A stretch of DNA of 64,000 nt, from positions 672,001-736,000 of the forward strand of contig JAVZJD010000002.1 of assembly GCA_038870975.1 (NCBI GenBank). The letters run 5' to 3'. The position numbers and the translations under genes were made by a program. Positions 32,929 through 58,524 of the stretch are shown one piece after another; the first letter of the stretch is position 1; each line of letters starts with the position of its first letter. The notes beneath the pieces are model-generated. The model saw only the letters and a program-made list of their open reading frames with translations, searched no databases and had not been told where the DNA came from. Source of the stretch: Candidatus Bathyarchaeia archaeon. Lineage in GTDB: Archaea; Thermoproteota; CALKCG01; B24.

Positions 32929-33181
32929 ATGCCTCAGGCGTTTGTACTTATAAATTCCGAAATAGGTGCGGAGGAGGAGGTTTTAAACGCTCTTAAAAAT
33001 ATGGAGAATGTCAAGGAGGCATACATAGTCTATGGAGTCTACGACATAATCGCCCGGGTGGAAAGGGTTATTGCAACCCCCACATGCTGACACTATGGAG
33101 AAGCTTAGAGAGATAGTGACTGTAAGAATACGTAGGATAAATAAGGTTAGAAGCACTTTAACCATGATAGTTGCTAAGTAG
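32929..33181 (+). CDS. Stand-alone Lrp/AsnC ligand-binding domain protein (76 aa after removing intron 33064-33085)
   Basis: Exon 1 MPQAFVLINSEIGAEEEV...VYGVYDIIARVE; exon 2 ADTMEKLREIVTVRIRRINKVRSTLTMIVAK*; missed by the ORF track because the unspliced frame stops at 33088-33090. Confidence 0.9.
33064..33085 (+). other. Putative 22-nt bulge-helix-bulge mRNA intron
   Basis: Helix GTGG/CCAC, bulges AA^A and AT^G, inner stem GGGTT/AACCC, outer CGG/CTG; removal restores frame. Confidence 0.85.
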
Positions 33182-33238
33182 ATTTCAATTCCCCACTTTC
33201 ATTTTTAGACGTCGAACGACGTAAATACTTATATCACC

Positions 33239-34897
33239 ATGCTTGAGAATACTTATCTCGTGGAAAGAGTATACGTAGTTCCAGAACCTAAGAGGCTGGA
33301 GTTTACAGGTAAATGGTTTAAATTCGACGGTTTCGAAAACTTCCCGAAATTCATAGGTGAAGAGTTTAAAGTACCTGTGGGCGGGTGGAGAATAGTCAAA
33401 GTCGACCGTGATGGGACTGGTGTTAAAGTCAAAGAGGGGTTTGTCGAAGTTTGGGGTGACGAAAAAGTATTCTATGCTACGCTCATACAGCTTATACTGC
33501 AGGGTGATGGACATATTCCAGAGGTTACTATTGAAGAGGGTTTCTTCTTTAAATTTAGAGGATTCCATTTAGACATAGCTAGAGGAGGAGTCCCAAAAGT
33601 TGAGACATTTAAGTCGATCATTAGATGGCTCTACCTGCTCAAATACAACTACTTTGCAGTTTACGTTGAAGACCTATTCCCGTGGAAGAGCTATCCCCAG
33701 ATCGGTATATTGAGGGGTAGGCTAACGGAAGGAGAGTGGAATACCATAGTAGACTACGGTGAAAAGCTCGGTATTGAAGTCTTCCCATCTCTAGAGTTGT
33801 GCGGACACATGGAGCATATACTTTCAATACCTGAGTTTAGACGGTTCAGCGAGTGGCATAGACCTATGGAGGGTTGTTTAGATGTAAGTAATGAGGAGGC
33901 GAGAGAATTTGCATACAGACTTTTAAATGAGGCTTTAGAACTTACACGGTCAAAGTATGTGCATATAGGTGGAGATGAGACTTGGGCACTTGGAAGAGGA
34001 GTGAGTCTGAATAAGACGTGGAAGTTTGAAGGCCCAAGTCTCTACGAGAGACACCATAAGAGACTTGTTGAGATAGCTAGAAGCCATGAGAAAATCCCGC
34101 TGCTGTGGGGAGATATGATATCTGGAATGTATTTAGCTGGGGATAGGGAGAAGTGGGCTGAAGTGCTTCAAAGCGACATATGGAGAGATAGTATAATTGC
34201 CAACTGGGATTACAGCCCAGAGTCTATAGACCACTTTAGGAGGAAGATAGATATTTTTAAGAGTAGAGGGCTTGAACAAGTGGCTTGCCCAGGGCTTTCA
34301 AACTGGGACAGATTCTACCCAAATATCGAAGTAGCTATTGCAAACCTTAGAAACTTCCTTATAGCTGCTAGAGAGAAGGGCATCCTAGGCTTCATGGTGA
34401 CGGCTTGGGGAGACGATGGAGAAGAATGTCTATTTTCATTTCTGAATCCACTGATACTCGCATCCATGGAGATCGCTGAGGGCATTGGAGAATGGGAGGA
34501 GAAGTGGATGGCGCTAACTGGAGAATCTAAAGACGTGTTGAAAGCGAGGCTCTTATTCGGACGTGGAGAAGTCTCGGATATTCTCAAACATGCGTTATAT
34601 TCTACGCCTCTTCTGAGGAGGATTGGACGTGAAAGGCTAGAGCAGATTGTTAAAAACTGGGGAGGACTTCTAGAAGATTTGAAAGACGTTGCTCTACCTA
34701 AAGACCTCGAATTCATAAGGAGGAGTATTGAGGTTGGCTTAAATAAGCTCAGAGGGAAAGCGACAGTTTCAGACTACATTGCATTAGCCCGTTTATACTC
34801 TGAACTGTGGCTTTCAGAGAGAAAGCCAGAAGGATTAGAATTGATCGTTACAAGGCTTTGGGGGGCTGCTGGAAGAACTGACTTAAACCTGCAGTGA
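33239..34897 (+). CDS. GH20 beta-N-acetylhexosaminidase
   Basis: FRGFHLDIARG, HIGGDE, LLWGDM, TAWGDDG. Confidence 0.9.
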   Translation: MLENTYLVERVYVVPEPKRLEFTGKWFKFDGFENFPKFIGEEFKVPVGGWRIVKVDRDGTGVKVKEGFVEVWGDEKVFYATLIQLILQGDGHIPEVTIEEGFFFKFRGFHLDIARGGVPKVETFKSIIRWLYLLKYNYFAVYVEDLFPWKSYPQIGILRGRLTEGEWNTIVDYGEKLGIEVFPSLELCGHMEHILSIPEFRRFSEWHRPMEGCLDVSNEEAREFAYRLLNEALELTRSKYVHIGGDETWALGRGVSLNKTWKFEGPSLYERHHKRLVEIARSHEKIPLLWGDMISGMYLAGDREKWAEVLQSDIWRDSIIANWDYSPESIDHFRRKIDIFKSRGLEQVACPGLSNWDRFYPNIEVAIANLRNFLIAAREKGILGFMVTAWGDDGEECLFSFLNPLILASMEIAEGIGEWEEKWMALTGESKDVLKARLLFGRGEVSDILKHALYSTPLLRRIGRERLEQIVKNWGGLLEDLKDVALPKDLEFIRRSIEVGLNKLRGKATVSDYIALARLYSELWLSERKPEGLELIVTRLWGAAGRTDLNLQ

Positions 34898-34924
34898 TAC
34901 TTTCATGGTTTAGGTTTAACCCTT

Positions 34925-35986
34925 TCAACATTTTTCTACTATTTTCAATACTCTCTGTGCTTCTTCCTCACTGTGGCACCAGGTTTGGAGGAATAGGCCT
35001 TCGTGTTTAAGCTTGGATAGTAGGAATTCCACTTCCCATGGTTCGCATGATATTTGAAGGCATTTGCCAGCTTCCAACACTCTACGGCATACATTCACCC
35101 ATTTAGACATCGGTAGTGCACTGGCACCTGGAACCCATTGAATACCATCTATAGATTCTACTTTAAGCAGTATGTCTAGGTTGTTTAAAGCCATAGGTCC
35201 GTCTAAGTGGAATATCGAATTGTCTAAGTGTTCCGAGAGAATTATCTGCTCCTCTAGGAAGAATTCTCTGAACATTTTAGGAGATACAAGCCCTGAAAAA
35301 TCGTCCTGTAACGGGAAAAACCTACCTCTGGAGTAGGCTGGTATCCAGCTTATAGAACCCTCCTGGACTTTAGATATTTTACTGTAGTACGCTTCAAACA
35401 CCTGTATGCATATTTCCGTTATCCTCCCAATAAGCCTCTTAACTTCATTAGGCTGAGTGTACAATGCCCTCACAAGCTTCTGCGTTCCAATCATAGCGGC
35501 TAAAGCATCTCCACCGTAGTGTAGGTCTGGAATACCGACTAGGAAATTCCCCTTTGCAACTCTACAGACTGCATCTAAGATACTGTTCATAGTTCTCCAC
35601 CACTTGTTAGACTCATTGAGAACAGGCTCATAGTTCTTCAAGTCATCTACGAAAGGCTTCACCCACGAGGTCTCCTCATCGAGAAACGTCAATTCACCTC
35701 CCAGGAAAGCAGTTAGAGAATTGGGGCCTAAGTTTGGCCAATACTGTGGAAGAGCACCGCCTAGGAAGACGGTGTTTTCAAAGTAGTGTTCAAGCCGTTT
35801 GAGAATATAGTCTATATTTATCCATTTATCTTCAAGCGTCTTAACAGTTGGAATCTCCACGTACACTCGACGTTTCCTAGGAGCGGTTATGTGGATTAAA
35901 GGCCTATCTAAAACCTCACGCTTCCAAAAGGCATCGAAACGCTGTTTAATTGCATCAAAATCTACCTCAACTAAGTACGACCTCAT
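34925..35986 (-). CDS. Uroporphyrinogen decarboxylase-fold (cobalamin methyltransferase-like) protein
   Basis: PNLGP, LQDDFSGLVSP, FHLDGP, IQWVPGA. Confidence 0.7.
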   Translation of the reverse strand: MRSYLVEVDFDAIKQRFDAFWKREVLDRPLIHITAPRKRRVYVEIPTVKTLEDKWINIDYILKRLEHYFENTVFLGGALPQYWPNLGPNSLTAFLGGELTFLDEETSWVKPFVDDLKNYEPVLNESNKWWRTMNSILDAVCRVAKGNFLVGIPDLHYGGDALAAMIGTQKLVRALYTQPNEVKRLIGRITEICIQVFEAYYSKISKVQEGSISWIPAYSRGRFFPLQDDFSGLVSPKMFREFFLEEQIILSEHLDNSIFHLDGPMALNNLDILLKVESIDGIQWVPGASALPMSKWVNVCRRVLEAGKCLQISCEPWEVEFLLSKLKHEGLFLQTWCHSEEEAQRVLKIVEKC

Positions 35987-36029
35987 ACACGAACACCCTT
36001 TCAGCGGCGGTATATAGATATAGTTGAGT

Positions 36030-37976
36030 CTAAAAGCAGATCTTCACGGCAGAGTGTATTTTAAGTTCTTCAAGCTCAGCTTCTAGGATATTGCTCACAT
36101 ACCTCCATTTAATAGAGGATTCCGGGGGAATTAGTCTCAATTCTACGGGTTTCTTTTTAAGCTTAAGTTTGAACTTTAGCCCTTTTATTGGAGGTATGTC
36201 CTCTACGTAGAAGGAATTCCCCGAAAGGTCCTTGTAAACGGATAGATTGCAGAAGTGAAGTAGCAATGAATCCGACTTTCTCCTCAGAACAACTTCCACT
36301 GTCGGAGGAGCCTCCAACTCGAGCGATTTAGCGACAACATGGTCTAGGATAAACCCTATGATCTCCCTTATTTTTGGATACTGCTCAAACCAGTATGCTC
36401 CGAAGATGTCTGAAGCTATGTATACTGCTCTTCCAGAGCCGTATTTGTTCATCGAGGCTGCGGTAGTTTCACTGTCTAAAGCCTCTTTTTCCGATGTTGA
36501 GAGGGGGAGTATTTGAACTGCTTCATTAAGTAGAGGCCTATGCCAAGGTTTATTTATCAGTATCTTCTCCCCTCTGAATGGAATCCATCCTCTGGGTATG
36601 GCATTAAACTCTAAATGTTTTAAACCGAATAACTCTAGGGCTTTATCTACGTTGTTGACGAGAGATTTCCCAGTGGCTATTAGAACGCCTCCTCCCCTTG
36701 TAAACTCCATTAGGGCTTCTACTGTTGTTTCATCTATGAAGGATTGTTCAGTTAGAATTACAGCCTTATAGTTGTTTAATCTAGCGAGTAGGGTTTTCTC
36801 GTCGACTATGTCGAATAGGTAATGTAGTTCCTGCAGTGCTTTATGGGCACCCCTGAGGGGGTCTAAAACTCTCCCATAATCGTAAAGTCCGTTACCTGTC
36901 TCGTAGAAGTTTAAAGCTGAATGTAGTAGGGCGACCTCGTGATAAGGCTCAGATTCCTCAAAGGCTTCAGCTCTTGTATACGCGAAATCTGCGCATTTAG
37001 CTACTGTGCGCATATGTGAAGGCTGAAGAGAGTCGTCTTCGAGCGGGTTAACCCATATGAACCACTTTCCTCCATTAGCCATGATTACGGCGCCTTCTTG
37101 GAAGAGGTGTATTGGATACTTTGGGTAGGGTGTAGTATTGCCCCAGGTGAAAGCCTGTAAAGCCGTCATTAGATCAAACGGTTTACCTCTGGTTGACAAG
37201 AACCTTGCCTCGAAGCTTGCCTGTAGAGGACCATGCGTTGGAGATACGTCTGCAGACACCCAGTCTATGAACTCTAGAGGTTCATCGGGCATTCTCATTG
37301 TGAAAGACCAGTTGCTTGTAAATAGACAGTTAGGGTTAAGCTTATGGATGAACTCTGCACACTTTCTCAGGTAGTTTATAAAACTCTTTCTGTGGAATGC
37401 CATCCACGCTTTCCACAGTGGGTCTTGTGGATTTTTAGGCGGTTCTACGCCGTGAATACTCATAAACATTTTTCTACATGAGTCGCAGTAGCATGGAGCA
37501 ACACTCCAACAGTCTCCGTCGAACCAGAAGCCGTCGGGGTTGTATTTTTCAATTATCTCTTTAAGCTGTGGTAAAACCCTTGATTCAACGTAACCGCTGT
37601 TAGGACATAAAACATCTTCCCCTATGAAACCCCCCTCCACATTACGTCTACGCCATTCTGGGTGTTCTCTAGCAGCATACTCATCTTTCAACCCACTGTA
37701 GTAGACCGTGAATTTCACACCGAGTTTTTCAGAGGCCTTCTTATACGTTGCTAAAGCATCTTTCACGAGGCTTGGAGGAGTCCCTCCCAAACTTGTTGGA
37801 TAATTCGTCCATCCTGGGTGTCCTTTAGAATGGTACTGTATAAAGCCTGGTTTTACGGGAGCTATTAAAGAGGCGATCTCATCTGGATCTGCTCCACCCC
37901 CTACAGGGGTACTGGGTCCAACATGATGGTCGAAATGTATGTTTAAGAGTGTCTTCTTATACCATTCAACTCTCAT
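36030..37976 (-). CDS. Glycoside hydrolase, GH151/alpha-L-fucosidase-like with GATase-like trimerisation domain
   Basis: HFDHH, SKGHPGWTNYPT, YNPDGFWFDG, CYCDSC, VALLHS. Confidence 0.7.
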   Translation of the reverse strand: MRVEWYKKTLLNIHFDHHVGPSTPVGGGADPDEIASLIAPVKPGFIQYHSKGHPGWTNYPTSLGGTPPSLVKDALATYKKASEKLGVKFTVYYSGLKDEYAAREHPEWRRRNVEGGFIGEDVLCPNSGYVESRVLPQLKEIIEKYNPDGFWFDGDCWSVAPCYCDSCRKMFMSIHGVEPPKNPQDPLWKAWMAFHRKSFINYLRKCAEFIHKLNPNCLFTSNWSFTMRMPDEPLEFIDWVSADVSPTHGPLQASFEARFLSTRGKPFDLMTALQAFTWGNTTPYPKYPIHLFQEGAVIMANGGKWFIWVNPLEDDSLQPSHMRTVAKCADFAYTRAEAFEESEPYHEVALLHSALNFYETGNGLYDYGRVLDPLRGAHKALQELHYLFDIVDEKTLLARLNNYKAVILTEQSFIDETTVEALMEFTRGGGVLIATGKSLVNNVDKALELFGLKHLEFNAIPRGWIPFRGEKILINKPWHRPLLNEAVQILPLSTSEKEALDSETTAASMNKYGSGRAVYIASDIFGAYWFEQYPKIREIIGFILDHVVAKSLELEAPPTVEVVLRRKSDSLLLHFCNLSVYKDLSGNSFYVEDIPPIKGLKFKLKLKKKPVELRLIPPESSIKWRYVSNILEAELEELKIHSAVKICF

Positions 37977-38261
37977 ATCAGTACCTGAGTAGTTTTCCAC
38001 TTCTTATAGATTTAAATCATACATATGCTTTCCGTAAGATCCTAATTAAATACGGGTTGACTTAACCTAGTTTTACCTTTGGATATACTCTGACTATGTA
38101 ATTTTGAAGTTTTCGATTTAAATTTGAACCGCGTAGCAGGAGTAAGTAGACAGAGGAAAAGGATGCTTGGGAAAAGGTCTTAAAAATTGCCATAGCGTAG
38201 AGTTGCGACGATTTCAACAAAATCCTTAAATCAATGTTGACAATAATGAGGACTGAGACCC

Positions 38262-38618
38262 TTGGGATTCATTAAGGTTAAATTTGGTGTTTTTAATCCA
38301 CTCTCCCCCATAAAGATTGCTGAGATAGAGGGTATAGTGGATACAGGAGCCATATACAGTGTTATACCTAGAAGGAGACTTGAAGAGTTGGATATTAAGC
38401 CGATTGAGAGGAGGAGGTTTAGGGCATTTGGTGGATACGTTGAAAGGGATATAAGTGAAGTTGGAGTGGAAATTCTGGGAAGAAGGAGGACCGTAACTGT
38501 AATTATGGGAGAAGACAAAGACCAAGTCATATTGGGTGTAACAGCCTTAGAATCTTTCGGTTTAGAAGTCGACCCAGTAAGAGGGACGTTGAAAGAGGCA
38601 GAACTCCTACTCCTATAA
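38262..38618 (+). CDS. Clan AA aspartyl protease
   Basis: IVDTGA, ILGVTALE..GLEVDP. Confidence 0.88.
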   Translation: MGFIKVKFGVFNPLSPIKIAEIEGIVDTGAIYSVIPRRRLEELDIKPIERRRFRAFGGYVERDISEVGVEILGRRRTVTVIMGEDKDQVILGVTALESFGLEVDPVRGTLKEAELLLL

Positions 38619-38634
38619 ACTGGACAAGACGTGC

Positions 38635-39351
38635 CTATTTAATGTTTGAGACAATGCTGTTTCTAAGCATTAAACACAATGGTATACCTATAACCGTAGA
38701 CATTAGTGTGAATATTATTCTCTCAAACGCAGCAATAGGAATTAGCATTATGAAGAGTGAAGGAAGATTTGACACGTTTATAAGGAGGAGGTCAGCTACT
38801 GATATGAATACTAAACAACCATACATGTGACTGGTTACAGTCGCCGAATAACTACACAGCAATATTGAAAGCGACAGTTTCTTTTTTACATTGCTGTGGA
38901 AGAATTCAGCAAGCTTTGAACGTAAGACCAAGATTATTATAAGACCAAACCAATGCAACATTGCGAATATTGGTACGGCTTGGCCTACATAGGTTAAATA
39001 CCAAGCAATTATCAGAGCTGTTAAGACTACTGCTGAAATCTTCCAACCCGCTACACCGTTTAAGCGGCTTCTTGAAAGTGCACCAGCGGTGAAAGCCGAA
39101 AGAGGCATGGATGGTAGGGTAAGCCACTCAAATAAACTAGCTCCTGTTAAAATACGGTTGATGAAGGCTCCGAGAAGCGTAGTCAGTGTGCCGAGCGTTG
39201 GACCTAGGATGAAGCCGTAAATTGGCGCTATTCCTGAAATCATTCCGATTTTAGCACCGCTTATCCCTATTACGGGAAAGCCGGGTAGGTAGCTTAATAC
39301 CACGTACACAGCAGTCATTGTTGAAATCAAAGCCACATGCTTCGCATTCAT
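38635..39351 (-). CDS. ECF transporter S-component-like membrane protein
   Basis: APIYGFILGP, several TM segments, FERII. Confidence 0.65.
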   Translation of the reverse strand: MNAKHVALISTMTAVYVVLSYLPGFPVIGISGAKIGMISGIAPIYGFILGPTLGTLTTLLGAFINRILTGASLFEWLTLPSMPLSAFTAGALSRSRLNGVAGWKISAVVLTALIIAWYLTYVGQAVPIFAMLHWFGLIIILVLRSKLAEFFHSNVKKKLSLSILLCSYSATVTSHMYGCLVFISVADLLLINVSNLPSLFIMLIPIAAFERIIFTLMSTVIGIPLCLMLRNSIVSNIK

Positions 39352-39381
39352 ATGGACCCCTCGTTTGTCGGTATGGTGGTT

Positions 39382-40395
39382 TTAGAAGCGTAGACCGTTT
39401 AGAATAGCCAACATTAGAGAGGATGCTGTGAGGTCTGCTGTCGTACCTGGATTTAGCTTTTTCATCTTCAATTCTACGTCGAATTTAAAGAGTTCTCTCC
39501 GTCCCTCTGGGGTCTTGAGCCCGCCGAGTTGAAGTATCTTACCAGCTTTCTCTGATATCTCTTCAGCGGTTTTCATGCCTATCTTCACGGCTTCAGCTAC
39601 GTTTGACGTATATTTCAATCCAACTTTTCTAGCTATAAAACTATCTGGGTATAGAGATAGCAGTTTTAAATAGGTGTGAACCGTTGCAACATTTATATCT
39701 TTAGACTCTGAGTATAGCGTTTGAAGAATTGGAAAGCCCACGGTACAAGTTATAGGTAGAGAACTGACAAGCTCTCTAGCTATAGTATCCCATTCAGCTG
39801 CAACCTCCATAACATCGTACAGCGTTAAATTCCCCTCTAGAAGAAGTCTTTCCGCCTCGCTATTCTGTAAATCCGGTGCTTTTCCGCCTAAGACCTGACC
39901 CATCCCCCCTGGACCTGCTTGAGAGATTGCATCATACACTTCAGTAGCGTCTTCGCATGTTGTAGACTCCATAATTCTGGCGAAGTTTTCACGGAAGTCG
40001 GGGATGTTGATGTTACTACTCGCTGCAAGCGTCATCCCGACTGCGGCGGCCATAGGTATGAATAGGAGTATGACGCCTAAATGTGTGTTTCCACCCCTGT
40101 GCCAAGCCTTTACGTTTAGCACTGCTCGTTTAATCAAACTTCCAATCTTCACTTCAGATGTTTCACCGAGCTTTAGAGAGACTGCTTTAAACGCAGTCTC
40201 CCATAATACTGGGCCGAGGGATATTGAACCAGCTATAAAGTGTTCAAACCTAGTATCTGGAAAATCTGAAGTTCTATGGACGTTTCCAGGCTTAGGCCAG
40301 CCGCAGACTTCAAGTGTAGCCGCCAACTGTCCCGCCACCATAATCTGGTCGGCTATTTCAATTTTACGCTTCCAAGTTGTAGACATAGCGGTCAA
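39382..40395 (-). CDS. citG: Triphosphoribosyl-dephospho-CoA synthase (CitG family)
   Basis: LEVCGWPKPGNVHR, NTHLG, LNPGTTADL. Confidence 0.9.
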   Translation of the reverse strand: MTAMSTTWKRKIEIADQIMVAGQLAATLEVCGWPKPGNVHRTSDFPDTRFEHFIAGSISLGPVLWETAFKAVSLKLGETSEVKIGSLIKRAVLNVKAWHRGGNTHLGVILLFIPMAAAVGMTLAASSNINIPDFRENFARIMESTTCEDATEVYDAISQAGPGGMGQVLGGKAPDLQNSEAERLLLEGNLTLYDVMEVAAEWDTIARELVSSLPITCTVGFPILQTLYSESKDINVATVHTYLKLLSLYPDSFIARKVGLKYTSNVAEAVKIGMKTAEEISEKAGKILQLGGLKTPEGRRELFKFDVELKMKKLNPGTTADLTASSLMLAILNGLRF

Positions 40396-40533
40396 TCCTC
40401 AAACTTCTATTCCAGCGTCGTGAAACCTAATACGTTCGACTCGAAATTAAAGAATTACTTTAAAGTCAAGCATCTAGAGATGTGTCTGCACAAACCTGAA
40501 ATACTTATCTATCCACATGATACTTCAATACAG

Positions 40534-41064
40534 GTGGTTGATGTGGATTTTTACGAAGTGGTTAGAACACGTAGAAGTATTAGGTCTTATAAACCCGACC
40601 CAATACCAGACGATGTCTTAATGAGAATCTTAGAGGCTGCTAGAATAGCCCCCTCGGGTTCAAACCGCCAACCTTGGAAGTTCATACTCGTTAAAAACGA
40701 AGAGTTGAAGAAGAAGTTGGCAGTTGCATGCCACGACCAGACGTTCATCGCGGAAGCGCCTATCATCATAGTAGCCTGTGGATACAACATACATTGGAAT
40801 AGAGGAGAGTACATGGGAGATTTAAGCATGTTAGTCGACGTATCCATAGCATTCACACACTTGATTCTAGCAGCCAGAGCAGAGGGTTTAGGGACATGTT
40901 GGATAGGCTCCTTCAGCAACGACAAAGTTAAGAAGCTTCTCGGAATACCTGAGGACGTCAACGTTGTCGCAATAACACCACTCGGATATCCTAAAGATCA
41001 AGGTTTTGAAGAACCTGGGCCGAGGAAGCCTCTATCGGAGATCATATCTATAGATAGATTCTGA
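40534..41064 (+). CDS. Nitroreductase family protein
   Basis: RRSIRSY, APSGSNRQPW, GLGTCWIG. Confidence 0.93.
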   Translation: MVDVDFYEVVRTRRSIRSYKPDPIPDDVLMRILEAARIAPSGSNRQPWKFILVKNEELKKKLAVACHDQTFIAEAPIIIVACGYNIHWNRGEYMGDLSMLVDVSIAFTHLILAARAEGLGTCWIGSFSNDKVKKLLGIPEDVNVVAITPLGYPKDQGFEEPGPRKPLSEIISIDRF

Positions 41065-41161
41065 AAACGTAGACCTATACCTAGTCTTTAGATGGGGAGA
41101 AGCCCCTCAAATAGAGTAATGCTTTTAAAAACGGAGGAAGTATTTAGGTAGTGGACTGCAA

Positions 41162-41235
41162 GGGCCGGTCGTCTAGTCTGGTAGGATACCACCCTTACGA
41201 GGTGGTGGTCGTCGGTTCAAGTCCGACCCGGCCCA
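41162..41235 (+). tRNA. tRNA-Val(TAC), no intron
   Basis: Acceptor GGGCCGG/CCGGCCC, anticodon arm CCACC-CTTACGA-GGTGG, T-arm GTCGGTTCAAGTCCGAC. Confidence 0.95.
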
Positions 41236-41259
41236 CTATACCATTGGGTTCAATAAAAC

Positions 41260-42030
41260 TTATAAGCCACTCGAGGGTTGGTGGTCTACTGCCTTACAAG
41301 AGCTTGGATACTTCTCCATTCTTATCATCTTTCCGTTGTCGGATAGTTAACTTTTTGTAACTATCCGTTCCACCTTTGCTAAAGCTTCATAGGTGGCTTT
41401 CGGGGTCAACGGAAAATCCCCCACATCCTGGGTCCGCATCATCCTGAATCTGCGCTCCGATCCCACCCCAATGGCGGAGCCAAACCCATCAGCTACCCGT
41501 AGGGAAACACCGTGAAACATCTATAAAAGTTAATTATTCAGAAACTGCTGTTAAACCCTCTGGCTGAATGAGCCGTGCCATCCAGCAAAGCTCTATAGGC
41601 TTATATTCGCAAGTCAAAGCAACTTCTTCAGCTTTCCTTATAAATTTCATATCATCTTAACAGGCTTTAATCCTGCTTTAACTAAAATCTCATTTATCAC
41701 ACTTTTAACCATCTTATCAGGCATTACAGTATCTATACCACCCATCATTCTCAAGTATTGGAAAGTGATTAAGCCTACGCCTTTGAGTTTACCGATTGGA
41801 TCTTCCCTCCAATTTTCAAGTTTGGCATTTCTCGCCCAAGTCCTCAACGCCAACTTATCATCTTGGCTTAGGGTTGATAGATAAGATGCTATGTTCTTAG
41901 CAATAATCCATGATCTCTTATTTCTCCACACTTTTCTCGACTCATCAATATCTACTTCGGTAAGGTCTTTAAGGCTCTTGATTTTCTCATTCTCAATAAA
42001 CTTCTTATTGAATTCTTCAACTATGCTCAT
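41260..42030 (-). pseudogene. Helix-hairpin-helix protein remnant, frameshifted and interrupted by the MITE
   Basis: LKGVGLITFQYLRM...MPD HhH-like motif; frameshift near 41650; 3' limit approximate. Confidence 0.55.
41333..41557 (-). mobile_element. Non-autonomous IS607-derived element (MITE-like, 225 bp)
   Basis: Both ends match the IS at 8733-10577; GG at both ends; removal rejoins an open frame (IQPEG|KMIRMEKY). Confidence 0.85.
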
Positions 42031-42141
42031 GAATGAAAGAGGCTAAGATTAAACTATTGATTTGATGGATGCAAAACATTGCCGTAAATTCCATTGTTAA
42101 AATTTAAAATTCTCAAAATAAAACTTAGAATTAGTTTTAAA

Positions 42142-42400
42142 GTGTCTGATGCTCAATCCGCTCGGGTCATCAATTACTATAGGAAAGTTGCTGAAGACTA
42201 TGATAAAGAGTATGATGCCCCCTATTTTAAAATGCTCTATGATAAAATCACCCGGCGTTACATCGAACTTTATCTACTGAGGGGGGCTCGTTTTAGACGC
42301 GGAAGGAGGAACGAGTAAGTGGTCCATACCCATAGCTGAGAGGACTTAAAGTGATCCTTTATGATATTTCACCCGATATGCTTAAGGTAGCTCAGGATTT
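42142..42400 (+). pseudogene. Class I SAM-dependent methyltransferase remnant
   Basis: YYRKVAEDYD, then frame-broken VLDA.GGT.KWS and YDISPDMLKVA. Confidence 0.6.
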
Positions 42401-49042: not shown

Positions 49043-49241
49043 AAGTATCTTAAATATTTCTCCGTCCTCATAATTTTTCCCTCAGGCTGTATAAGCCATA
49101 GAGAAGAGGAGCTAAAATTAAAGGATAGAGTTAATCAATGCACATCTCTTCCGTAAATTTACTACAGCGTATTTAAATAAAGATATCTTTTACATGCATA
49201 AAGATTTATATTCGGTGAGAGAACAATTTAAGTGGATTCTC

Positions 49242-49478
49242 ATGGCTGAAATAGAAGCAGAGCGCTTGACCCAGAAAAGGGTTGAGGATTTAATAGCCAT
49301 AAGCTTATACCAGGCAAGGGCTAACAGGGTTAAGGAGTATGTAAGAGAGCTTTACAAGAGCTATGAACAATACTTAAAACCATTAGAGGATATCAGAAAG
49401 ATTTTAGCTAGCGAATTAACTGAAGAGAAGACGTTAAGCCAAGAAATTGTTGAGCTTAGGAAAAGGGAGACCCATTGA
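49242..49478 (+). CDS. Putative VapB-type antitoxin
   Basis: Small ORF abutting the PIN toxin; ends LSQEIVELR. Confidence 0.6.
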   Translation: MAEIEAERLTQKRVEDLIAISLYQARANRVKEYVRELYKSYEQYLKPLEDIRKILASELTEEKTLSQEIVELRKRETH

Positions 49479-49979
49479 ATGGTCACATTCTACTTAGACA
49501 CTTCAGCCATAGTTAAAAGATACCGTAAGGAAATCGGCTCTGAGGTTTTAGACAGGATATTTGAGCTTAAGGGGCACGTCTTCACCACCTCTTTCTTGAG
49601 CATACTTGAGTTTATAGTCGCTTTCTCGACTCGAATGAGAAGGAAAGCTTTGTCGAGGGAAGCCTTTAACGCCGTTGTTTCGCATTTCCTTAAGGATGTT
49701 CTCGACAGATTTGCCATAATGAGCGTGAATGATGAGCTTGTAGCTTCAGCAGCTCCATTAGCAGTTAAGCACGCTCTACCATCATCGGACTGCCTACAAC
49801 TAGCCAGCGTCGTAAGCTTGAAAAAAGCCTTAGAGCCTGCAAAGGAAAAACTCATCCTGGTATGCTCAGATAAAGACCTATGTAGAGCGGCTGAAGAGGA
49901 GGGAATAGAGCTCATAGACCCGGAAGAGAAAGATGCTCTGAAAAAATTGGATAGGATTATCTCTCAGACTTCATGTTAA
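49479..49979 (+). CDS. vapC: VapC/PIN domain toxin
   Basis: YLDTSAIVKRY, DCLQLAS, VCSDKDL..AA. Confidence 0.9.
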   Translation: MVTFYLDTSAIVKRYRKEIGSEVLDRIFELKGHVFTTSFLSILEFIVAFSTRMRRKALSREAFNAVVSHFLKDVLDRFAIMSVNDELVASAAPLAVKHALPSSDCLQLASVVSLKKALEPAKEKLILVCSDKDLCRAAEEEGIELIDPEEKDALKKLDRIISQTSC

Positions 49980-50051
49980 AGAGCCGTGAAACACATATAA
50001 GTCATCGCCAGTTTCTAGGATAAACGCTAACGCAGAAATCGCGCATCCTTC

Positions 50052-50195
50052 TTAAGTAAAGGTTTCCATCAATCCATACCTTCCTAACCTTGACGCAATT
50101 TTGCAAACTATCTTCAAGCATTCATCGCAGATTCTAAAGCAAGCTACACAAGTCTTCTTGTTACAAACCCTACAATTACCTCTAACCTCATCCAT
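50052..50195 (-). other. Small multi-CxxC zinc-finger ORF or remnant
   Basis: CRVC...CVAC...CDEC...C in 47 aa. Confidence 0.35.
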
Positions 50196-50338
50196 TCTGA
50201 TTACCCTTCGAAAACTTCAAAGCCAGCCATCTGACACAACTTATAGTATCTGCTTCAAGAGGAATCGTTAGTCCTTTTCTCCGAATACCCTTAACTACGA
50301 CAACCATGAATTCATTTAGCTTTGAGATTCTGAAACGG

Positions 50339-51229
50339 TCAAAATAATTTAGAAAGGAGTTTAAACTTGATGTTTTCCCATGCTAACATTCTGAGGGCTT
50401 CTCTAAATGCTTTCATTGGATATGTTACATTTGCTACTCCCTTTTCGCTTCTCTCGTATTTCAACCCTCTTATGATTACCACTGGTATTGCCTCATCTGT
50501 TTGACCAAAAAGTAAGTTCGCAGATGCAGAAACTAGGTCTGTCAAATCGTCAACTCCGCCGAATTTAGGCTTACCATAAAGGTCTTTAGCACCAAAGTTT
50601 CTTGAAACAGGCTGGATTCCCGAAGAGCCTATTGCTATATCAACCGTGCCGAATTTATCAAGCTTCCATTCTGTATCCGTAATAACGACAGCCGTTTCCT
50701 TACCCGTTAACTCCCTTATTTTCTCCCTTATTCTCCTGGCCGATTCATCTGGATCTTCTGGTATCAGCGTACAATAGCCCGGAGGGGAGTTTGAAAAATC
50801 GATACCACCCCAAGTTAGTAATCGATTTCTCACATCGATGAGAAAAATGTAAGGGTGTTCTCTGATGACCTTTTGAGCGTCTTCCTTGTTCCTCGTATAC
50901 TCCTCGAATAGATGCCCATACTTTTTCGCAAGCTTCTCTATCGGAATTACAGCTTTTATCTCGCCTTCTCTAAGATACAACTCCATAACTTCTGGCGGTG
51001 TTTTATAGAATCTTGAAAGAAAGTAAGCTCTGCGAGAAGGCTTTACATCGCTAAGCTTGTGGGTTCTACCTTCAACCTTCGAGACGATTTTCGATGTTAT
51101 AACGATTACGTCCCCTTCCTTTATCCCATAAGCCTGTCTTTCAGCTTCCTCAACTATCAACTTTGGAAGATCGGTCTCGGAGTTGATATCTTCACTCATC
51201 TTTAAACCATAGATCTCAACCTTCCTCAC
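50339..51229 (-). CDS. Coenzyme F420:L-glutamate ligase (CofE) family protein
   Basis: GDVIVITSKIVSKVEG, GGIDFSN, PEDPDESAR, AVVITDT, IPVVIIRG; GTG start. Confidence 0.85.
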   Translation of the reverse strand: MRKVEIYGLKMSEDINSETDLPKLIVEEAERQAYGIKEGDVIVITSKIVSKVEGRTHKLSDVKPSRRAYFLSRFYKTPPEVMELYLREGEIKAVIPIEKLAKKYGHLFEEYTRNKEDAQKVIREHPYIFLIDVRNRLLTWGGIDFSNSPPGYCTLIPEDPDESARRIREKIRELTGKETAVVITDTEWKLDKFGTVDIAIGSSGIQPVSRNFGAKDLYGKPKFGGVDDLTDLVSASANLLFGQTDEAIPVVIIRGLKYERSEKGVANVTYPMKAFREALRMLAWENIKFKLLSKLF

Positions 51230-52041
51230 AGTAACCACCACGATAAAATTCGCACCAAAAATAAACAAGGAGTTTATCACTCCTTCTTCATAATATATTG
51301 GAAATGTACATACTGGTTTTGATCCCATTTTGATTGCGTTGAAGCAGGTCTTTTTATCTGTAAACGGGTCTGCCCTAAACTTGCTTAGCATGACCCTGGC
51401 CCACTCTTCCACCATAGAGCCTCCATCAATCTGAAGGTTTGAATCCCCAGCTCCTCCTTTAAAACATAAACTGGTCCAACTCCCTCAACAGAGAACTAGA
51501 CTTCTCCTTGAGTAGTTAGGATGGTTGAAGCCGAAAGCGTAGAGGAGCTTATAGTGTTACGGCTTCAATGAGCCTTCTGAAGACTTCAAAAGTGTTTAGT
51601 CTCTTCAGACCCGTTGGAGCTTAAGGATAGACTTAAATTCCATTAACGGCATCAACGCAGAGACCATCAGAGTAAGCGATGAACACTCTAAATCTGTACA
51701 TCTTCAACACGTAGAATACTACCACGAGCAATTTAAAATGGGAAAACTATAGAGGGGAGGGGTCTAAACATCCATAAAAAACACCCATAAACCACCCCAT
51801 AAAATATCCATAATATTGGTTTAAATTGAAGTGGCGAATGGTATGGTTAGAAGACCCTCCAGAATGGGGAAAGATGATAAAAACGGGGTTTTCAACCCCT
51901 CGCTTCCACTCAGCTACACACTTTCAAACAACCACCCCAACTAGAACGTTTGAAAGCCGTCTCCCATCTCTATAAAGACGAACGACGCTATCTACATCCC
52001 ACTCTAATAGGATACTACCCCCTATACACATTCGATTCCAA

Positions 52042-52830
52042 TCAGCCCAGTAGAAGCGAGTAGACTTCAAGCATAGTCATACCCTTAGCTGAAACAGTCC
52101 TCCCATTCAATCTGACAACCCCCTTTCTACGTGAAAGACGCTCAGCAGTCTCACTATCGTGAAACTCCACCTTAAGCTCAATCGGCTTTTCAGGCTTAAA
52201 CGGAGCAAACTCTTCAGCCCTTTTAACCGCAGCTACAGCCGCTTCTCTTATAAGCTTCCGAGAGACCTTCGGATGGAGACATTTCGCCGCAAACCTACTG
52301 GTAGCCTTCTTAACAGCTACAGTACACACCTTCTTTAGGAGGTTTTCAGCCTCACGTACGGCTGCGAAATCTCCAGTTACTAAACCTACTGGGACATTAT
52401 AGTCTCCAGCTAAAGCAGCCCAAAGCCCTATCTCCCCAACTCGAACACCGTTCAACCAAACACCATCTATAGCCGTAGATAAAGTGTGTGTTAAAAGCCC
52501 GTCTGAAGTCCCAGCCATAGAGTGAGCACCTACAGCAAACATCAGATTGAAACTCCCATCTAAACCCTCAAGCTCTAGAACCCTCCGACCCCTTATCAAC
52601 TGAGCCCTAGGGTCAAGCTCCTCCATTAGTATAGTTAGCGCAGCCCCATGACCATCTAAAACAACCACTTCATCAACACCAGCTTCAAAAGCACCCTCAA
52701 TAGCCGCATTAACATCACCCGTTAGAAACCTTCTAGCGGCTTCATAGTCTTTACCGCCAAAGTCTATATCAGACCAATGACCAGCTACTCCAGACGCCCC
52801 CTCTAAATCAGTCATGATGAACACTTTCAT
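52042..52830 (-). CDS. dppA: M55 family D-aminopeptidase
   Basis: TDLEGASG, VNAAIEGA, DGHG, LTHT, VTGD. Confidence 0.9.
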   Translation of the reverse strand: MKVFIMTDLEGASGVAGHWSDIDFGGKDYEAARRFLTGDVNAAIEGAFEAGVDEVVVLDGHGAALTILMEELDPRAQLIRGRRVLELEGLDGSFNLMFAVGAHSMAGTSDGLLTHTLSTAIDGVWLNGVRVGEIGLWAALAGDYNVPVGLVTGDFAAVREAENLLKKVCTVAVKKATSRFAAKCLHPKVSRKLIREAAVAAVKRAEEFAPFKPEKPIELKVEFHDSETAERLSRRKGVVRLNGRTVSAKGMTMLEVYSLLLG

Positions 52831-52964
52831 ACCAAACCACAGATAGCTTATCTAGCTAAACAGATACTTAAAATGTTTTCAACACCTCAAACACAAAGGA
52901 TAATACTTTATCTCCTCCAACTGTGTAATATACCATCGGAGGACTATGTTCAACCGGTGGTTGA

Positions 52965-53984
52965 ATGGTCGGTAAGATTCCACCCAAGATCATGGAGAAA
53001 CTCGTGTACACAAAGACCGGCTCTAAAGACCCAAGTGTCCTAGTAGGCCCTGCAACTGGAGAAGACGCAGCTATAGTAGACCTTGGAGATGGGAAAGCTC
53101 TAGTTGTACATAATGACGCAATCACCAGCGCATGTAAATCCTTAGGATGGCTTGCAGTACACATAGTCGCCAACGACATAGCTGTCAGAGGCGCAAGACC
53201 AAGGTGGTTTTTAATGTCACTATTCCTCCCTGAGAATGCTCCAGAGAAAACCCTCAGTGAAGTCATGGATCAAGTCGATAGAGCAGCAAAAGACCTGGGA
53301 ATAATGGTCATCGGAGGTCACACAGAGAGTACACCTGGACTCGATAGACCTATAGTCGGTACAACCGCCATTGGAATCGCCGATTTAGAGAAAATCGTGA
53401 CAACTTCAGGTGCAAAGACCAACGACTATATAATCATGACTAAAACAGCGGCTATTGAAGGAACTGCTATACTCTGCACAGACTTTGCCGAGATTTTGAA
53501 AAACCGGGGACTCGACTATTCAACCGTTGAAGAGGGCTCTAAGTTCTTAGCTAGAATAAGCGTTGTAAAAGAGGCACTTGCCCTGGCTGATAATAGACTT
53601 ACCACAGCTATGCACGATCCGACCGAGGGAGGAATATTGGGTGGTGTTGCAGAGCTCGCATACGCTTCACGGAAGACTATTAAACTATACGCTGATAAAA
53701 TACCGATTGCTAAAGAGACAAAACTCGCAACCGAAGCCCTTGGTGTTGATGCATTAAAATTGATAAGCTCCGGAGCCCTCGTGGCGGCGATACCACCTGA
53801 GAAGTTGAACAGGTCTTTAGAAGTTTTACAGAAGATTGGTGTGGAGGCTAGTGTAATTGGAAGAGTCGGGGATTTTACAGGACACTTAGTAGAGGTTATT
53901 AAAAACTCTTCAATAGAATACGTAGATGAAGTGTATATAACAGACGAACTATACCGTCTATGGGAAAAGACGACGATTAGATAG
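52965..53984 (+). CDS. AIR synthase-related (HypE/PurM-like) protein
   Basis: GEDAA, NDIAVRGA, GGHTE, MHDPTEGG. Confidence 0.88.
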   Translation: MVGKIPPKIMEKLVYTKTGSKDPSVLVGPATGEDAAIVDLGDGKALVVHNDAITSACKSLGWLAVHIVANDIAVRGARPRWFLMSLFLPENAPEKTLSEVMDQVDRAAKDLGIMVIGGHTESTPGLDRPIVGTTAIGIADLEKIVTTSGAKTNDYIIMTKTAAIEGTAILCTDFAEILKNRGLDYSTVEEGSKFLARISVVKEALALADNRLTTAMHDPTEGGILGGVAELAYASRKTIKLYADKIPIAKETKLATEALGVDALKLISSGALVAAIPPEKLNRSLEVLQKIGVEASVIGRVGDFTGHLVEVIKNSSIEYVDEVYITDELYRLWEKTTIR

Positions 53985-54038
53985 CTGATGGCTCGATTGT
54001 TACAGTCAATTTCACTGGAAAACATACAGCATCGGTTT

Positions 54039-54353
54039 TCACTTTTTCACTCCTCTAACTAATTTAACGCCTACGTCGCACAGCTTTCCTCCCGCGGAAA
54101 CAATGAAAAACATGAAAATTGTCCATAGTAACATATTCGCAAACTTACTAAGTTGGCTTCCTTGAATAACCGTAGTTTCTATTGGAGCCCCTCCAGTTGG
54201 CGGAGAGATTAAGAATTTAACGTCTTTGAATGAAAGTATGTGAGGAGGCTCAAAATGATTGGTGAATACGGCATACATTAGACAGATTGATGAAAGTATC
54301 ATTCCAAGCCCAATTGAAATTAGACAGTAGCCTAACACTCTATCCACATCCAC
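54039..54353 (-). CDS. Hypothetical two-TM membrane protein
   Basis: Two hydrophobic segments; occupies the gap between neighbouring genes. Confidence 0.6.
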   Translation of the reverse strand: MDVDRVLGYCLISIGLGMILSSICLMYAVFTNHFEPPHILSFKDVKFLISPPTGGAPIETTVIQGSQLSKFANMLLWTIFMFFIVSAGGKLCDVGVKLVRGVKK

Positions 54354-54452
54354 GTTATAAAGCCTCCGATTGGTATATTCAAAAGTAAAACTTAATTAGT
54401 ATTCACACACGTCTGAAGCCGGATCCTACGGTAGACTCGCACTTCATGATTG

Positions 54453-54815
54453 CTATTCTTCCAACTGTATACCTTTAAGTTTCTCTTGCAGTTTCTCTCT
54501 GGCTTCTTTAAGTTGAGTTCTAGCTCTAGTCTCCTGTTTATTCAAAATCGTTAATCGGGCGTTTAATAGTTCTTTTTGATCTTTAAGCTCTTCTATGAGC
54601 TTTTGACGGTCTGCTTTAATGAGCAGACTTCCGACAGACTTATATACTACCGTGCTATCATCCGCCTTCTCGAGTTCCTCCAAAGCTTTTTCAACGCTCA
54701 TAAGCTCCATTTCAACCTGCTGCCTCTGGGCTACTACTGCCTGTAAAGTCTGCTGAATCTGCTGGAATCTGACGAGTTGTTCCTGAACCGCCGGAGGGAT
54801 TTCAGCATCGCTCAA
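54453..54815 (-). CDS. pfdB: Prefoldin subunit beta
   Basis: Gln-rich coiled coils flanking VYKSVGSLLIK. Confidence 0.95.
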   Translation of the reverse strand: MSDAEIPPAVQEQLVRFQQIQQTLQAVVAQRQQVEMELMSVEKALEELEKADDSTVVYKSVGSLLIKADRQKLIEELKDQKELLNARLTILNKQETRARTQLKEAREKLQEKLKGIQLEE

Positions 54816-54865
54816 ACTTAAACCACCTGAATTTCTACAGTCACTCTTCCCAATAAATCTTCCTA

Positions 54866-55414
54866 CTAAAGGTACAGTTTTAAACCCCAGCCTACCAAAA
54901 GCTTTCTCAAAGCCTCACGTTTAAATAGCGTTAGAATAGCGTAGCCTAAGACGGCTACAGATATTAAACTGCTCAAGCTTACGCTAATTATCACGTACAA
55001 CCATGCTGGCAACCCAGGCGTTAGTTCAGGCGGTGGGAATATCAACCATAGATAGCTTCCGACGATTACACCGATTTCCAAAGCCGCTAGAAAGGCGGCT
55101 ACTCTAACTCTTCTCCTAAGCTTGAACAGCGTTAGAGAAGCTACCAAATTTGCCAATGGTCCAAGCGTCGCATCGAATACTAAACCCAGCGACATAATAA
55201 AAGCCCCACCTGAGACGTAGAAGAGCAGATTTCCAATGAAGCAGCCCAGTGTGACGCCGATCACAATAGGTGGACCTAGTAGCGCCGATAGAGTTATCAA
55301 ACAGTCAGATATCCTAAGTTGGATTGGACCGAAGGATATAGGTGCTAAGGCTAAGGTTAAAACGGCGTATAGACTTGCTACAGTGACTGTTAAAGCTGAT
55401 TCTTGAGTTCGCAT
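54866..55414 (-). CDS. QueT family transporter
   Basis: LYAVLTLALAPISFGPIQLRISD. Confidence 0.88.
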   Translation of the reverse strand: MRTQESALTVTVASLYAVLTLALAPISFGPIQLRISDCLITLSALLGPPIVIGVTLGCFIGNLLFYVSGGAFIMSLGLVFDATLGPLANLVASLTLFKLRRRVRVAAFLAALEIGVIVGSYLWLIFPPPELTPGLPAWLYVIISVSLSSLISVAVLGYAILTLFKREALRKLLVGWGLKLYL

Positions 55415-55528
55415 GCCGATTGAAGTAATACAGTAGAGTAAGATAATAACGTTGCCTTTTTACGCCGACTAGGCATGTAAAAACCGGGCTATTGCTTTAT
55501 TAACGAGAAATTCAATAGATTTTAAAGC

Positions 55529-56110
55529 TTGAAGATCAAGCGTTTAATCGTTGGACTTTTAAAGACAAACTGTTATATAGTTGAAAATAACGGTGAAGCT
55601 TTAATAATAGATCCTGGTGGTTCTCCGGATAGAATAATCGATTGCGCGTTGCAGAATAGATTGTACGTGGATTTGCTCATAGTAACTCATGGGCATCCTG
55701 ACCATTACTCAGCCTATCTAGACGTTAAGGATGCATTAAGATGTAAAGTTGCAATTCATAAATCCGACGTAGAAACGGCTAGACTTATGGGTATGCCTAT
55801 TGAACCAGACATCTACGTCGATGAAGGCACAATAGTTGGAGTCGGAAAATTGAAGTTTAAAGTGCTACACACACCTGGACATTCGCCTGGAAGCATATCC
55901 ATACTTGGACACGGCTTAATTTTCACCGGCGACTTAATGTTTAAAATGGGCTTTGGCAGAACGGACCTACATGGAGGGTCTTACCCGATTCTGATGAGAA
56001 GCCTCAAGAGGGTTTTAAGCCTTAAGGATGACTTGAAAGTGTATCCAGGTCATGGTCCACCAACTACTATTCAGAGTGAGAGAGGCTTCTATAAACGACT
56101 AAGTCTGTAA
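55529..56110 (+). CDS. MBL-fold metallo-hydrolase
   Basis: THGHPDH, HTPGHSPG, FTGD, PGHG. Confidence 0.93.
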   Translation: MKIKRLIVGLLKTNCYIVENNGEALIIDPGGSPDRIIDCALQNRLYVDLLIVTHGHPDHYSAYLDVKDALRCKVAIHKSDVETARLMGMPIEPDIYVDEGTIVGVGKLKFKVLHTPGHSPGSISILGHGLIFTGDLMFKMGFGRTDLHGGSYPILMRSLKRVLSLKDDLKVYPGHGPPTTIQSERGFYKRLSL

Positions 56111-56190
56111 CAAGAGATAAGGCGTATGAGTTTTTAAAGAGGCTCTATGAGTTTTTAGAAAATTTAAAAGCCTGGAAGTATGTTTAAATT

Positions 56191-57333
56191 ATGTCCAAAT
56201 TGATGGAGACGCCTAGAAAAGCTCTGATAGGCATGGTTAAGAAGAACCCACACGATCATAATCTATACTTACTTAAGCTTACAGAATTTAAGTCTCTTGT
56301 TGAAGCCGCCGGCTACGAGGTCTGTGGAACTGTTATTCAAGTTAGGCCTAAAGAGAGTGTAGATTACGTATTCGGCAAAGGAAAAGTTGAAGAGATTAAA
56401 AAACTTGTGGATAAGGAAGGGGCAGATATTTTCGCGGTTTACAACATTCTATCTAGTAAGCAGAAGTATAACTTGGAAAATTACCTGGGAGTCAGTGTTT
56501 TAGATAGGTATGAAGTTACTCTGCAGATTTTTGATAATGCAAGCTCAGATGAGCTTAGCAAGCTTCAAGTAGAACTTGCTAGACTCATTAAAAGTTATCC
56601 ATACGAGAAGCTTAAGGCAAGTTTTAAGTATAGAGTTGGAAGGGAACATCCATGGAAGAGGTCTAGTGGAGAGTACATATATCACTCTGTTGTAAATACG
56701 CTGAGGAGGAGGATAGCCAGAGTTTATGATGAGCTTGAGAAAAGAAAGAAGACTCGTATAGAGCAGATATTCAAGAGGCGTAGGATAGGTTCACCAATAG
56801 TATGCATAGCTGGATACTATAGTAGTGGTAAGACGTCTCTCTTCAACGCTTTAACTGGTTTAAATAAACCTGTTAGTCCTAAGCCGTTTACAACCCTTTC
56901 AAGCAAATACTATCTCACCAATAACTATGGCGAAGTATTCCTTGTAGACACCATAGGTTTTGTACACGACCTAGACCCTAGAATGCTTAAATCATTCGAA
57001 CTGACTTTAAACGACATAAAGTTTGCAGACATTATCATTCTCGTTGTAGACTGCTCAGACCCCCAACCTATAATGTTCTTCCGACTATCTACCTGTTTAG
57101 ATATTTTGAAAAGCCTTGAAGTAGATTCTAACAGGATTGTTGTAGCTTTAAACAAAGTAGACCTTTTAAGTAGAGAGGAGGTCTCCAACCGTTTAAAGAT
57201 TGTATCCGAGTATGTAAACCCAATACCAGTCGTACAAGTATCTGCTAAGGAAAAGCTGAACCTGGAAAAGCTGATGTCTACAGTATTCTTAAAGCTTAAC
57301 CAGCTGAAGGCTCAGAGTTCAAACTTCATATAA
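56191..57333 (+). CDS. hflX: GTPase HflX
   Basis: FGKGKVEEI, LQVELA, G1 GYYSSGKT, FTTL, DTIGF, NKVD. Confidence 0.9.
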   Translation: MSKLMETPRKALIGMVKKNPHDHNLYLLKLTEFKSLVEAAGYEVCGTVIQVRPKESVDYVFGKGKVEEIKKLVDKEGADIFAVYNILSSKQKYNLENYLGVSVLDRYEVTLQIFDNASSDELSKLQVELARLIKSYPYEKLKASFKYRVGREHPWKRSSGEYIYHSVVNTLRRRIARVYDELEKRKKTRIEQIFKRRRIGSPIVCIAGYYSSGKTSLFNALTGLNKPVSPKPFTTLSSKYYLTNNYGEVFLVDTIGFVHDLDPRMLKSFELTLNDIKFADIIILVVDCSDPQPIMFFRLSTCLDILKSLEVDSNRIVVALNKVDLLSREEVSNRLKIVSEYVNPIPVVQVSAKEKLNLEKLMSTVFLKLNQLKAQSSNFI

Positions 57334-57437
57334 AACTTAGAGGCTATTTTCGCGTAAAAGTGTGAACCCATAGAATATGCGTATCTAGCAAGCCTTTATA
57401 CAGTAAATCCTTATAGCGTAGAGCTAGATTTTGAGTT

Positions 57438-58524
57438 TTGATGAATGGTGAAAGTTTTTTCACACTCAGGACTATAAAGTGGGAGAATGGAGTCATAGTA
57501 GCAATAGATCAGAAACAGCTGCCTAAGAGGCTTAGGTATGTTAAAATACGTAGTGTGGAACAGCTTTCCGAAGCCATTAAAAACCTCACCATAAGAGGGG
57601 CACCCGCCATAGGCGTTGCAGCTGCGCTTGGATTAGCATTAGTCGCATACAAATCTAGAGCGAAAAGCCTGAGCGATTTCAAAAGGGAAATTGCAGAGGC
57701 ATATGAAAAGCTTAAGTCTACAAGGCCTACCGCTGTAAACTTATTTTGGGCTTTGGATAGAGTTTTTAAAAAAGTTTCTGAAGCTAAAGATCTTAAAGAG
57801 GCTAAGAAGAGTGTAGTAGAAGAGGCTAAAGCAATATGGATGAGAGACTATGAGATAAATAGACAGATAGGAGAATATGGTGCAACACTGCTTAAAGACG
57901 GAGACATAGTGCTCACGCACTGTAAATGGCTTAAGCCAGCAGAATGCGGGAGCACTAGCCACTACTGGATATGGAACAGCACTGGCAGTAATAAGGTCGG
58001 CTATAGCCAGAGGTTTACACATCGAAGTCTATGCAACTGAAACTAGGCCTGTGCTTCAAGGTGCTAGATTGACGGCCTTCGAACTTCTCATGGATAGAAT
58101 ACCTTTTAAACTCATAACCGACAATGCAGTTGGATTTATAATGCGTAAGAAGCTTGTAGATAAGGTCATAGTCGGTGCCGATAGAGTAGCTTTAAACGGC
58201 GATGTTATCAATAAGATAGGGACGTATATGTTGGCTGTTCTCGCAAATCGACATGGGATACCGTTTTACGTAGCCGCTCCGATGTCTACAGTAGACCTTA
58301 AACTGGAACGTGGCGACGACGCGCCTATAGAATTCAGAAGTAGAGAAGAGGTCGTTACAATTTGCGGCTGTAGAATAGCTCCAGAGGGCGTTGATGTACT
58401 AAACCCTGCTTTCGACGTAACTCCTTCAGAGCTTGTGACGGCCATTATAACTGAAAGAGGGGTGTTTAAAGTACCGGACGACTTAGATAGGCTGAGAACC
58501 GCTAGGCTTGGGGAAAGTGTTTAA
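57438..58524 (+). CDS. mtnA: S-methyl-5-thioribose-1-phosphate isomerase / eIF-2B alpha family (355 aa after removing intron 57926-57944)
   Basis: [17 protein letters not shown], restored [48 protein letters not shown]. Confidence 0.92.
57926..57944 (+). other. Putative 19-nt bulge-helix-bulge/loop mRNA intron
   Basis: Helix CTGT/GCAG, AA^A and AA^T, inner hairpin TGGC-TTAA-GCCA, outer CGC/GCG; removal gives CAC TGT AAT GCG GGA (HCNAG). Confidence 0.85.

Follow-up and report, generated by a model that had tools for sequence, protein, structure and literature searches.

Probable bulge-helix-bulge mini-introns within protein-coding genes of a Bathyarchaeia archaeon

Two genes in a 64,000-nucleotide stretch of the genome of Candidatus Bathyarchaeia archaeon (assembly GCA_038870975.1, contig JAVZJD010000002.1), one for an Lrp/AsnC-domain protein and one for S-methyl-5-thioribose-1-phosphate isomerase (mtnA), are each interrupted by a tiny insert whose exact removal restores the encoded protein. 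We think it highly likely that both inserts are archaeal bulge-helix-bulge (BHB) introns in coding sequence, alike in kind to the cbf5 pre-mRNA intron of Crenarchaeota that was reportedly described by Watanabe in 2002 and Yoshinari in 2006; the seemingly "broken" genes would then not be dead, and RNA splicing very probably makes them whole. The stretch, called the window below and numbered from its first base, is C2:672001-736000 of a 1.85-Mb, two-contig genome (G000), the closest named relatives of which are Bathyarchaeia metagenome bins. The original prediction, made from the window alone, was that two of its genes carry tiny inserts of like architecture; this is correct, and the inserts can be placed exactly at 33064-33085 (22 nt) and 57926-57944 (19 nt). 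Since they interrupt both reading frames, expression of the two proteins must depend on their removal, as was also proposed then.

The frame that is open from position 32929 encodes the beginning of an Lrp/AsnC domain and then meets a stop codon, and the remainder of the domain lies in the +1 frame. Exon 1 in the list of open reading frames (32929-33063; 45 codons; plus strand, as are all features of both genes) and exon 2 (33086-33181; 31 codons and the stop) match positions 2-40 and 43-71 of the 73-position Pfam profile AsnC_trans_reg, and between them lies the 22-nt insert with predicted cuts after 33063 and after 33085. The joined product has 76 amino acids, reads ..ARVE|ADTMEK.. across the joint and comprises the stand-alone ligand-binding (RAM) domain; this 76-residue protein, earlier labelled a "regulator", has no DNA-binding part. 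By sequence reading and folding the BHB motif spans 33055-33089, where the central helix GUGG/CCAC (4 bp, 33058-61 with 33080-83) is flanked by the bulges AA^A (33062-64) and AU^G (33084-86), each of 3 nt as in a canonical BHB (carets mark the predicted cuts). An inner hairpin of 5 bp (33065-33079) and a 3-bp exon-exon helix, CGG/CUG, complete the motif. No other deletion with a 4-bp helix aligns as well to a homologue from a distant genome as the predicted one does.

The second gene, recognized as mtnA by its match to the TIGR00512 profile, starts at TTG 57438 or at the following codon, an ATG; its frame resembles mtnA as far as ..LTHC, and the remainder of the protein is found in another frame. 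Exon 1 (57438-57925) covers positions 1-158 of 335 in TIGR00512 and 2-114 of 280 in IF-2B and ends in phase 2 (..UGU AA). Exon 2 (57945-58524) covers positions 160-334 and 117-279 of the same two profiles, and its first base finishes the Asn codon; one TIGR00512 position is missing between the exons because this codon is split by the intron. The 19-nt intron (57926-57944), whose predicted cuts after 57925 and after 57944 agree with intron-less orthologues, falls inside the conserved THCNAG segment, and the joint after its removal reads ..LTHC-N-AGALA... Its motif (57907-57957) is a relaxed BHB, with central helix CUGU/GCAG (4 bp, 57920-23 with 57939-42), 5' bulge AA^A (57924-26), a hairpin of 4 bp (57927-57938) and 3' bulge AA^U (57943-45), which has 2 nt in the minimum-energy fold and 3 nt with one A-U pair opened. 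The exon-exon helix is 12 bp long (8+4; 57907-14 and 57916-19 paired with 57945-48 and 57950-57), and the 86-nt fold has a z score of -4.5, with equal stability reached in none of 200 shuffles.

Both inserts thus share the BHB geometry known from archaeal tRNA introns, and each bulge would be cut behind its second base. In both genes the central helix joins the four exon-1 bases ahead of the 5' bulge to four bases close to the insert's 3' end, the 5' strand of the helix is followed by an AA^A bulge, a hairpin fills the insert, and the 3' bulge is AU^G in the Lrp/AsnC gene and AA^U in mtnA. The cut pairs first proposed do restore the proteins: AsnC_trans_reg, IF-2B and TIGR00512 positions run on consecutively across the joints, so that the predicted cuts should leave a functional joined product, as is expected of a BHB intron. 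A 4-bp central helix together with three A positions has a probability of 6.6e-4 at a random junction.

The Lrp insert occupies the identical site in 11 further genomes, which are drawn from the same genus, family and order and represent several families. The orthologous introns are 21, 22, 23 or 30 nt long, and those of 3n length contain an in-frame TAA. Both inserts of the present genome shift the frame by +1, and the length of 3n+1 first noted for them is right for the 22 and 19 nt seen here and fails as a rule. In an alignment of 12 Lrp sequences, that of this genome included, 96.5% of cells are paired, and in the central helix all of them are; four pairs show compensatory change, namely a double change from G-C to A-U in the central helix and three pairs of the hairpin (helix B). 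None of 500 shuffles reaches the observed pairing score, and slid controls have at most 51% of cells paired. Five same-genus genomes have an mtnA intron of 19 nt, and two of a sister genus have one of 22 nt, where the UGGC/GCCA stem is kept and the loop has 7 nt in place of 4. It is exactly absent from the relatives G010 and G013, which belong to another family and read straight through the predicted junction (..TGTAA|TGC..). Codons flanking the inserts vary synonymously among relatives, and both exons of each gene are under coding constraint in all of them.

The same design recurs elsewhere in the genome. Eight introns could be verified in its 1.85 Mb, those of the Lrp gene, mtnA, EF-2, MAT, EndoQ, pcm, a radical-SAM gene and cbf5. 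In each of the eight, the exact junction that homology defines shows a 4-bp central helix, A-led bulges and an intron whose first base is A, and in the six genes beyond the first two the junctions are confirmed by intron-less homologues. These loci were sought with motif-free scans, which ignore RNA structure and ask for adjacent open frames that are collinear to one reference protein with 10-130 extra bases between them. Against G017, a distant genome of the same phylum (1.6 Mb), five strong loci were found (mtnA, cbf5, the radical-SAM gene, the Lrp gene and EF-2), and against G010, of the same order, three (mtnA, EndoQ and pcm) with no other convincing one, the latter comparison covering 0.97 of about 1.4 Mb. 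The MAT intron was confirmed in sequence, and its G010 counterpart has 35 nt and a different hairpin. The cbf5 intron (17 nt, C2:281640-281656, minus strand) is of bulge-helix-loop type: its exon helix has 8 bp, and an inner hairpin is lacking; it splits the catalytic Asp codon between letters 1 and 2, which is the published position (PMC2738675), is about 34 nt long in G010, and is absent from the distant G017. The EF-2 and mtnA introns have similar GGCUU..AAGCC hairpins. A reverse scan found introns that are present in G010 only, one of 24 nt in aIF5B and one of 35 nt that interrupts the KPGKHG hypusine motif of aIF5A; these lie on contigs C7 and C12 of G010 (loci L179/L200-L212 and L184), have canonical 4-bp helices and A-rich bulges, and have no counterpart in G000. 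Several sites fall in conserved motifs: the catalytic Asp of cbf5, the hypusine motif of aIF5A, the edge of the EF-2 P-loop and THCNAG of mtnA.

The original prediction of a genome-wide system is upheld to the extent that eight genes are verified here and others exist in a relative. Its extrapolation from two introns in 64 kb to tens per genome is not, since neither motif-free scan, be it with the distant or with the related genome as reference, brought up any but the verified loci. Intron density is about 1 per 230 kb in this genome, and the two in the window are therefore a local excess. Eight is a lower bound, and when genes covered by neither reference are allowed for, we estimate roughly 8-15 such introns per genome. 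The phenomenon is thus a real one that extends through the lineage, and close relatives and genera differ by gains and losses.

Structure by itself does not find these introns. Genome scans for a 4-bp helix, an inner hairpin and an exon helix gave the same counts as decoy (parallel pairing) and frame-shifted controls, and filtering for open frames and coding potential did not change this. Demanding an exon helix or a 2-bp hairpin misses the real introns of MAT, pcm and cbf5. Junction peptides that extend a BLAST match 8-20 residues beyond the joint were equally frequent for the decoy, and a test for the same lax motif in both genomes returned mostly conserved coding DNA, with only MAT left after a coding filter. 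Some individual candidates were rejected as well: at window 3764-3795 the S26e frame reads through, and at two more collinear loci, C2:36144 and C2:269523, the translation is antisense and of low complexity. At C1:502033-502432 and C2:549891-550600 (both plus strand) the frames look plainly shifted relative to homologues, by about 1 and about 5 extra bases respectively, with no BHB; these may be true frameshifts, sequencing errors or something else.

The enzymes that such splicing would use are all encoded, as had been foreseen. There are two EndA paralogues, of 186 and 185 amino acids, located at C1:251532-252089 and C1:270197-270751, each with an N-terminal and a catalytic endonuclease domain. 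The first, alpha, matches the catalytic chains of S. tokodaii, A. pernix and P. aerophilum in the PDB (E = 1e-45 to 1e-36), and the second is divergent and, by sequence reading, appears to lack the catalytic His. The pair makes up a crenarchaeal-type alpha/beta EndA, with one catalytic (Tyr/His/Lys) and one structural subunit, a type of broad substrate range to which relaxed motifs are also accessible (PMC3241643, PMC5829648). Alignment of the alpha subunit to the S. tokodaii chain runs ungapped through a Lys-rich ..GISKPK.. segment (residues ~36-45), which may correspond to the Crenarchaea-specific EndA loop with its conserved Lys (PMC3241643). RtcB is encoded outside the window (C1:62226-65000, minus strand) in one open frame of 986 amino acids that matches PF01139 in two parts, positions 49-426 with 494 bits and positions 1-50 with 63 bits; between the parts lies an in-frame insertion of about 1.4 kb, a length that would suit an intein. 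RtcA, the RNA 3'-terminal phosphate cyclase (Pfam RTC, E = 1e-80), is encoded at window 59624-60694 on the minus strand, 1.1 kb downstream of the intron-bearing mtnA, a closeness that may be coincidence. RtcA produces 2',3'-cyclic phosphate ends, which RtcB ligates. No homing endonuclease lies beside either intron gene, the neighbours being L44e, a GH20 hydrolase, thymidylate kinase, an HflX-type GTPase, an A24 peptidase and RtcA. Between the last two, window 59324-59581 (plus strand) holds an 85-codon frame with Cys/His pairs (..CDVKGCDKP.., ..CKEHYK..) and no Pfam match. A tRNA-Tyr(GTA) at window 4976-5098 (plus strand; C2:676976-677098) has a predicted intron of 48 nt, which was found by ARAGORN with intron search and missed by the default tRNA scan.

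We infer that the inserts are cut and the exons ligated, and that EndA and RtcB do so. In the transcript, the last four exon-1 bases ahead of the bulge would pair with four near the 3' end of the intron, which would place a central helix between two A-led bulges, with the inner hairpin on one side and the exon-exon helix on the other. The alpha/beta EndA would then cut after the second base of each bulge, and RtcB would ligate the exons into the single reading frames whose joints are given above. Four points weigh against this interpretation. The 2-nt 3' bulge in the minimum-energy fold makes the mtnA motif relaxed and not canonical; the mtnA intron is near-identical within the genus, with little covariation and few informative changes; the BHB shape alone is as common genome-wide as the decoy motif; and the case is built on DNA sequence. 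Because the shape is unspecific, the case rests on structure, exact frame restoration and conservation in combination.

Other explanations can be offered for genes of this appearance. Each frame is interrupted as assembled, which is what decaying pseudogenes or assembly errors would look like, but inserts at identical sites in independently assembled genomes from different studies, flanked by codons that vary synonymously and kept in structure by compensatory change, should exclude both assembly error and gene decay; with like inserts borne by the essential EF-2, MAT and cbf5 genes as well, this explanation is scarcely credible. It is a little less improbable, and still very unlikely, that ribosomes restore the frame as they translate, through programmed frameshifting or by bypassing (hopping over) the insert. 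Such recoding would fit the +1 shift caused by both inserts and the stable hairpins in the gaps, but the conservation data argue strongly against it, since Lrp inserts of 21, 22, 23 and 30 nt represent all three classes modulo 3 and would require a shift that differs between orthologues. Moreover, frameshifting cannot deal with the in-frame TAA of the 3n versions, our reading of the sequences found neither a slippery site nor matching take-off and landing codons, and what covariation keeps is the helix-and-bulge geometry that EndA requires.

Somewhat more room, although not much, must be left for the idea that EndA cuts these transcripts and the exons stay unjoined or are joined only sometimes, which would make the inserts a switch that inactivates or regulates the mRNA, or would yield proteins expressed in two pieces. 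Ligation here is only inferred, and a BHB element in the 5' untranslated region of a Haloferax mRNA does affect expression (PMC7714728). Separate pieces are unlikely to function, however, as Lrp exon 2 has 31 codons that begin in the middle of a 73-position domain and mtnA would be severed within THCNAG; both exons are coding-constrained in all relatives, and RtcB is present. We therefore regard this as improbable and retain splicing as the preferred explanation. Any regulatory meaning of the introns is speculation.

The shared design, the sites in the most conserved motifs of core genes and the differences between sister genera and families raise the thought that the mini-introns are one propagating family, actively inserted into the mRNA-coding DNA of Bathyarchaeia, for example by reverse splicing and reverse transcription. 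We hold this only tentatively and consider it rather doubtful; that such propagation might work without an adjacent homing endonuclease is, within it, a similarly tentative suggestion. If propagation were true, splicing capacity (EndA and RtcB) would be a bottleneck shared by translation factors and metabolism.

If the introns are what we take them to be, at least eight genes of one genome, including those for EF-2 and SAM synthetase and cbf5 itself, need BHB splicing, and EndA and RtcB become essential for mRNA expression besides the maturation of tRNA and rRNA. Annotation pipelines will take genes of this sort for frameshifted or truncated ones, so that the metabolism reconstructed for uncultured archaea is distorted, and presence and absence among close relatives offers a natural system for following how protein-spliced introns enter and leave coding genes. 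The original prediction had left it unsettled whether such introns were already published, and the literature supplies a partial precedent: in the papers searched, which extend to 2025, cbf5 is the one archaeal coding sequence said to require BHB splicing (PMC7714728, PMC12397907, PMC2738675), and Yokobori et al. (2009, PMC2738675) remark that introns in other protein genes had been predicted and were then unconfirmed.

Among known systems, the HAC1/XBP1 introns (IRE1 with tRNA ligase or RtcB) are likewise short, non-spliceosomal coding introns that change the frame and are joined by a tRNA-ligase-type reaction, but nuclease and recognition motif are different, and that system is a eukaryotic stress-regulated switch. 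The BHB intron in the 5' untranslated region of Haloferax volcanii HVO_1309, confirmed in vivo and in vitro as a substrate of the splicing endonuclease (PMC7714728), is also an mRNA substrate of that enzyme; it lies in an untranslated leader, whereas here the reading frame is interrupted and the protein depends on exact ligation. Archaeal tRNA introns at 37/38 (BHB, EndA and RtcB) have the identical geometry and presumably the same enzymes; as in those introns, the exon helix bounds a loop of 7 bases after splicing, in which the joint falls between bases 6 and 7, and tRNAs of this genome contain introns too. The difference is that the substrate here is an mRNA with no tRNA body, in which the exon bases of the helix also encode protein. 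Closest of all is the crenarchaeal cbf5 intron, which is also a short BHB or relaxed BHB in coding sequence cut between the second and third bases of each bulge. It too goes together with a hetero-oligomeric EndA and comes and goes among related lineages, and the cbf5 of the present genome is interrupted at that very codon position, by 17 nt. What differs is that the hosts are new (Lrp/AsnC, mtnA, EF-2, MAT, EndoQ, pcm and the radical-SAM gene), that the lineage is Bathyarchaeia, that there are at least eight such introns here against one per genome there, and that splicing, established there by cDNA and in vitro cleavage, is here predicted from sequence.

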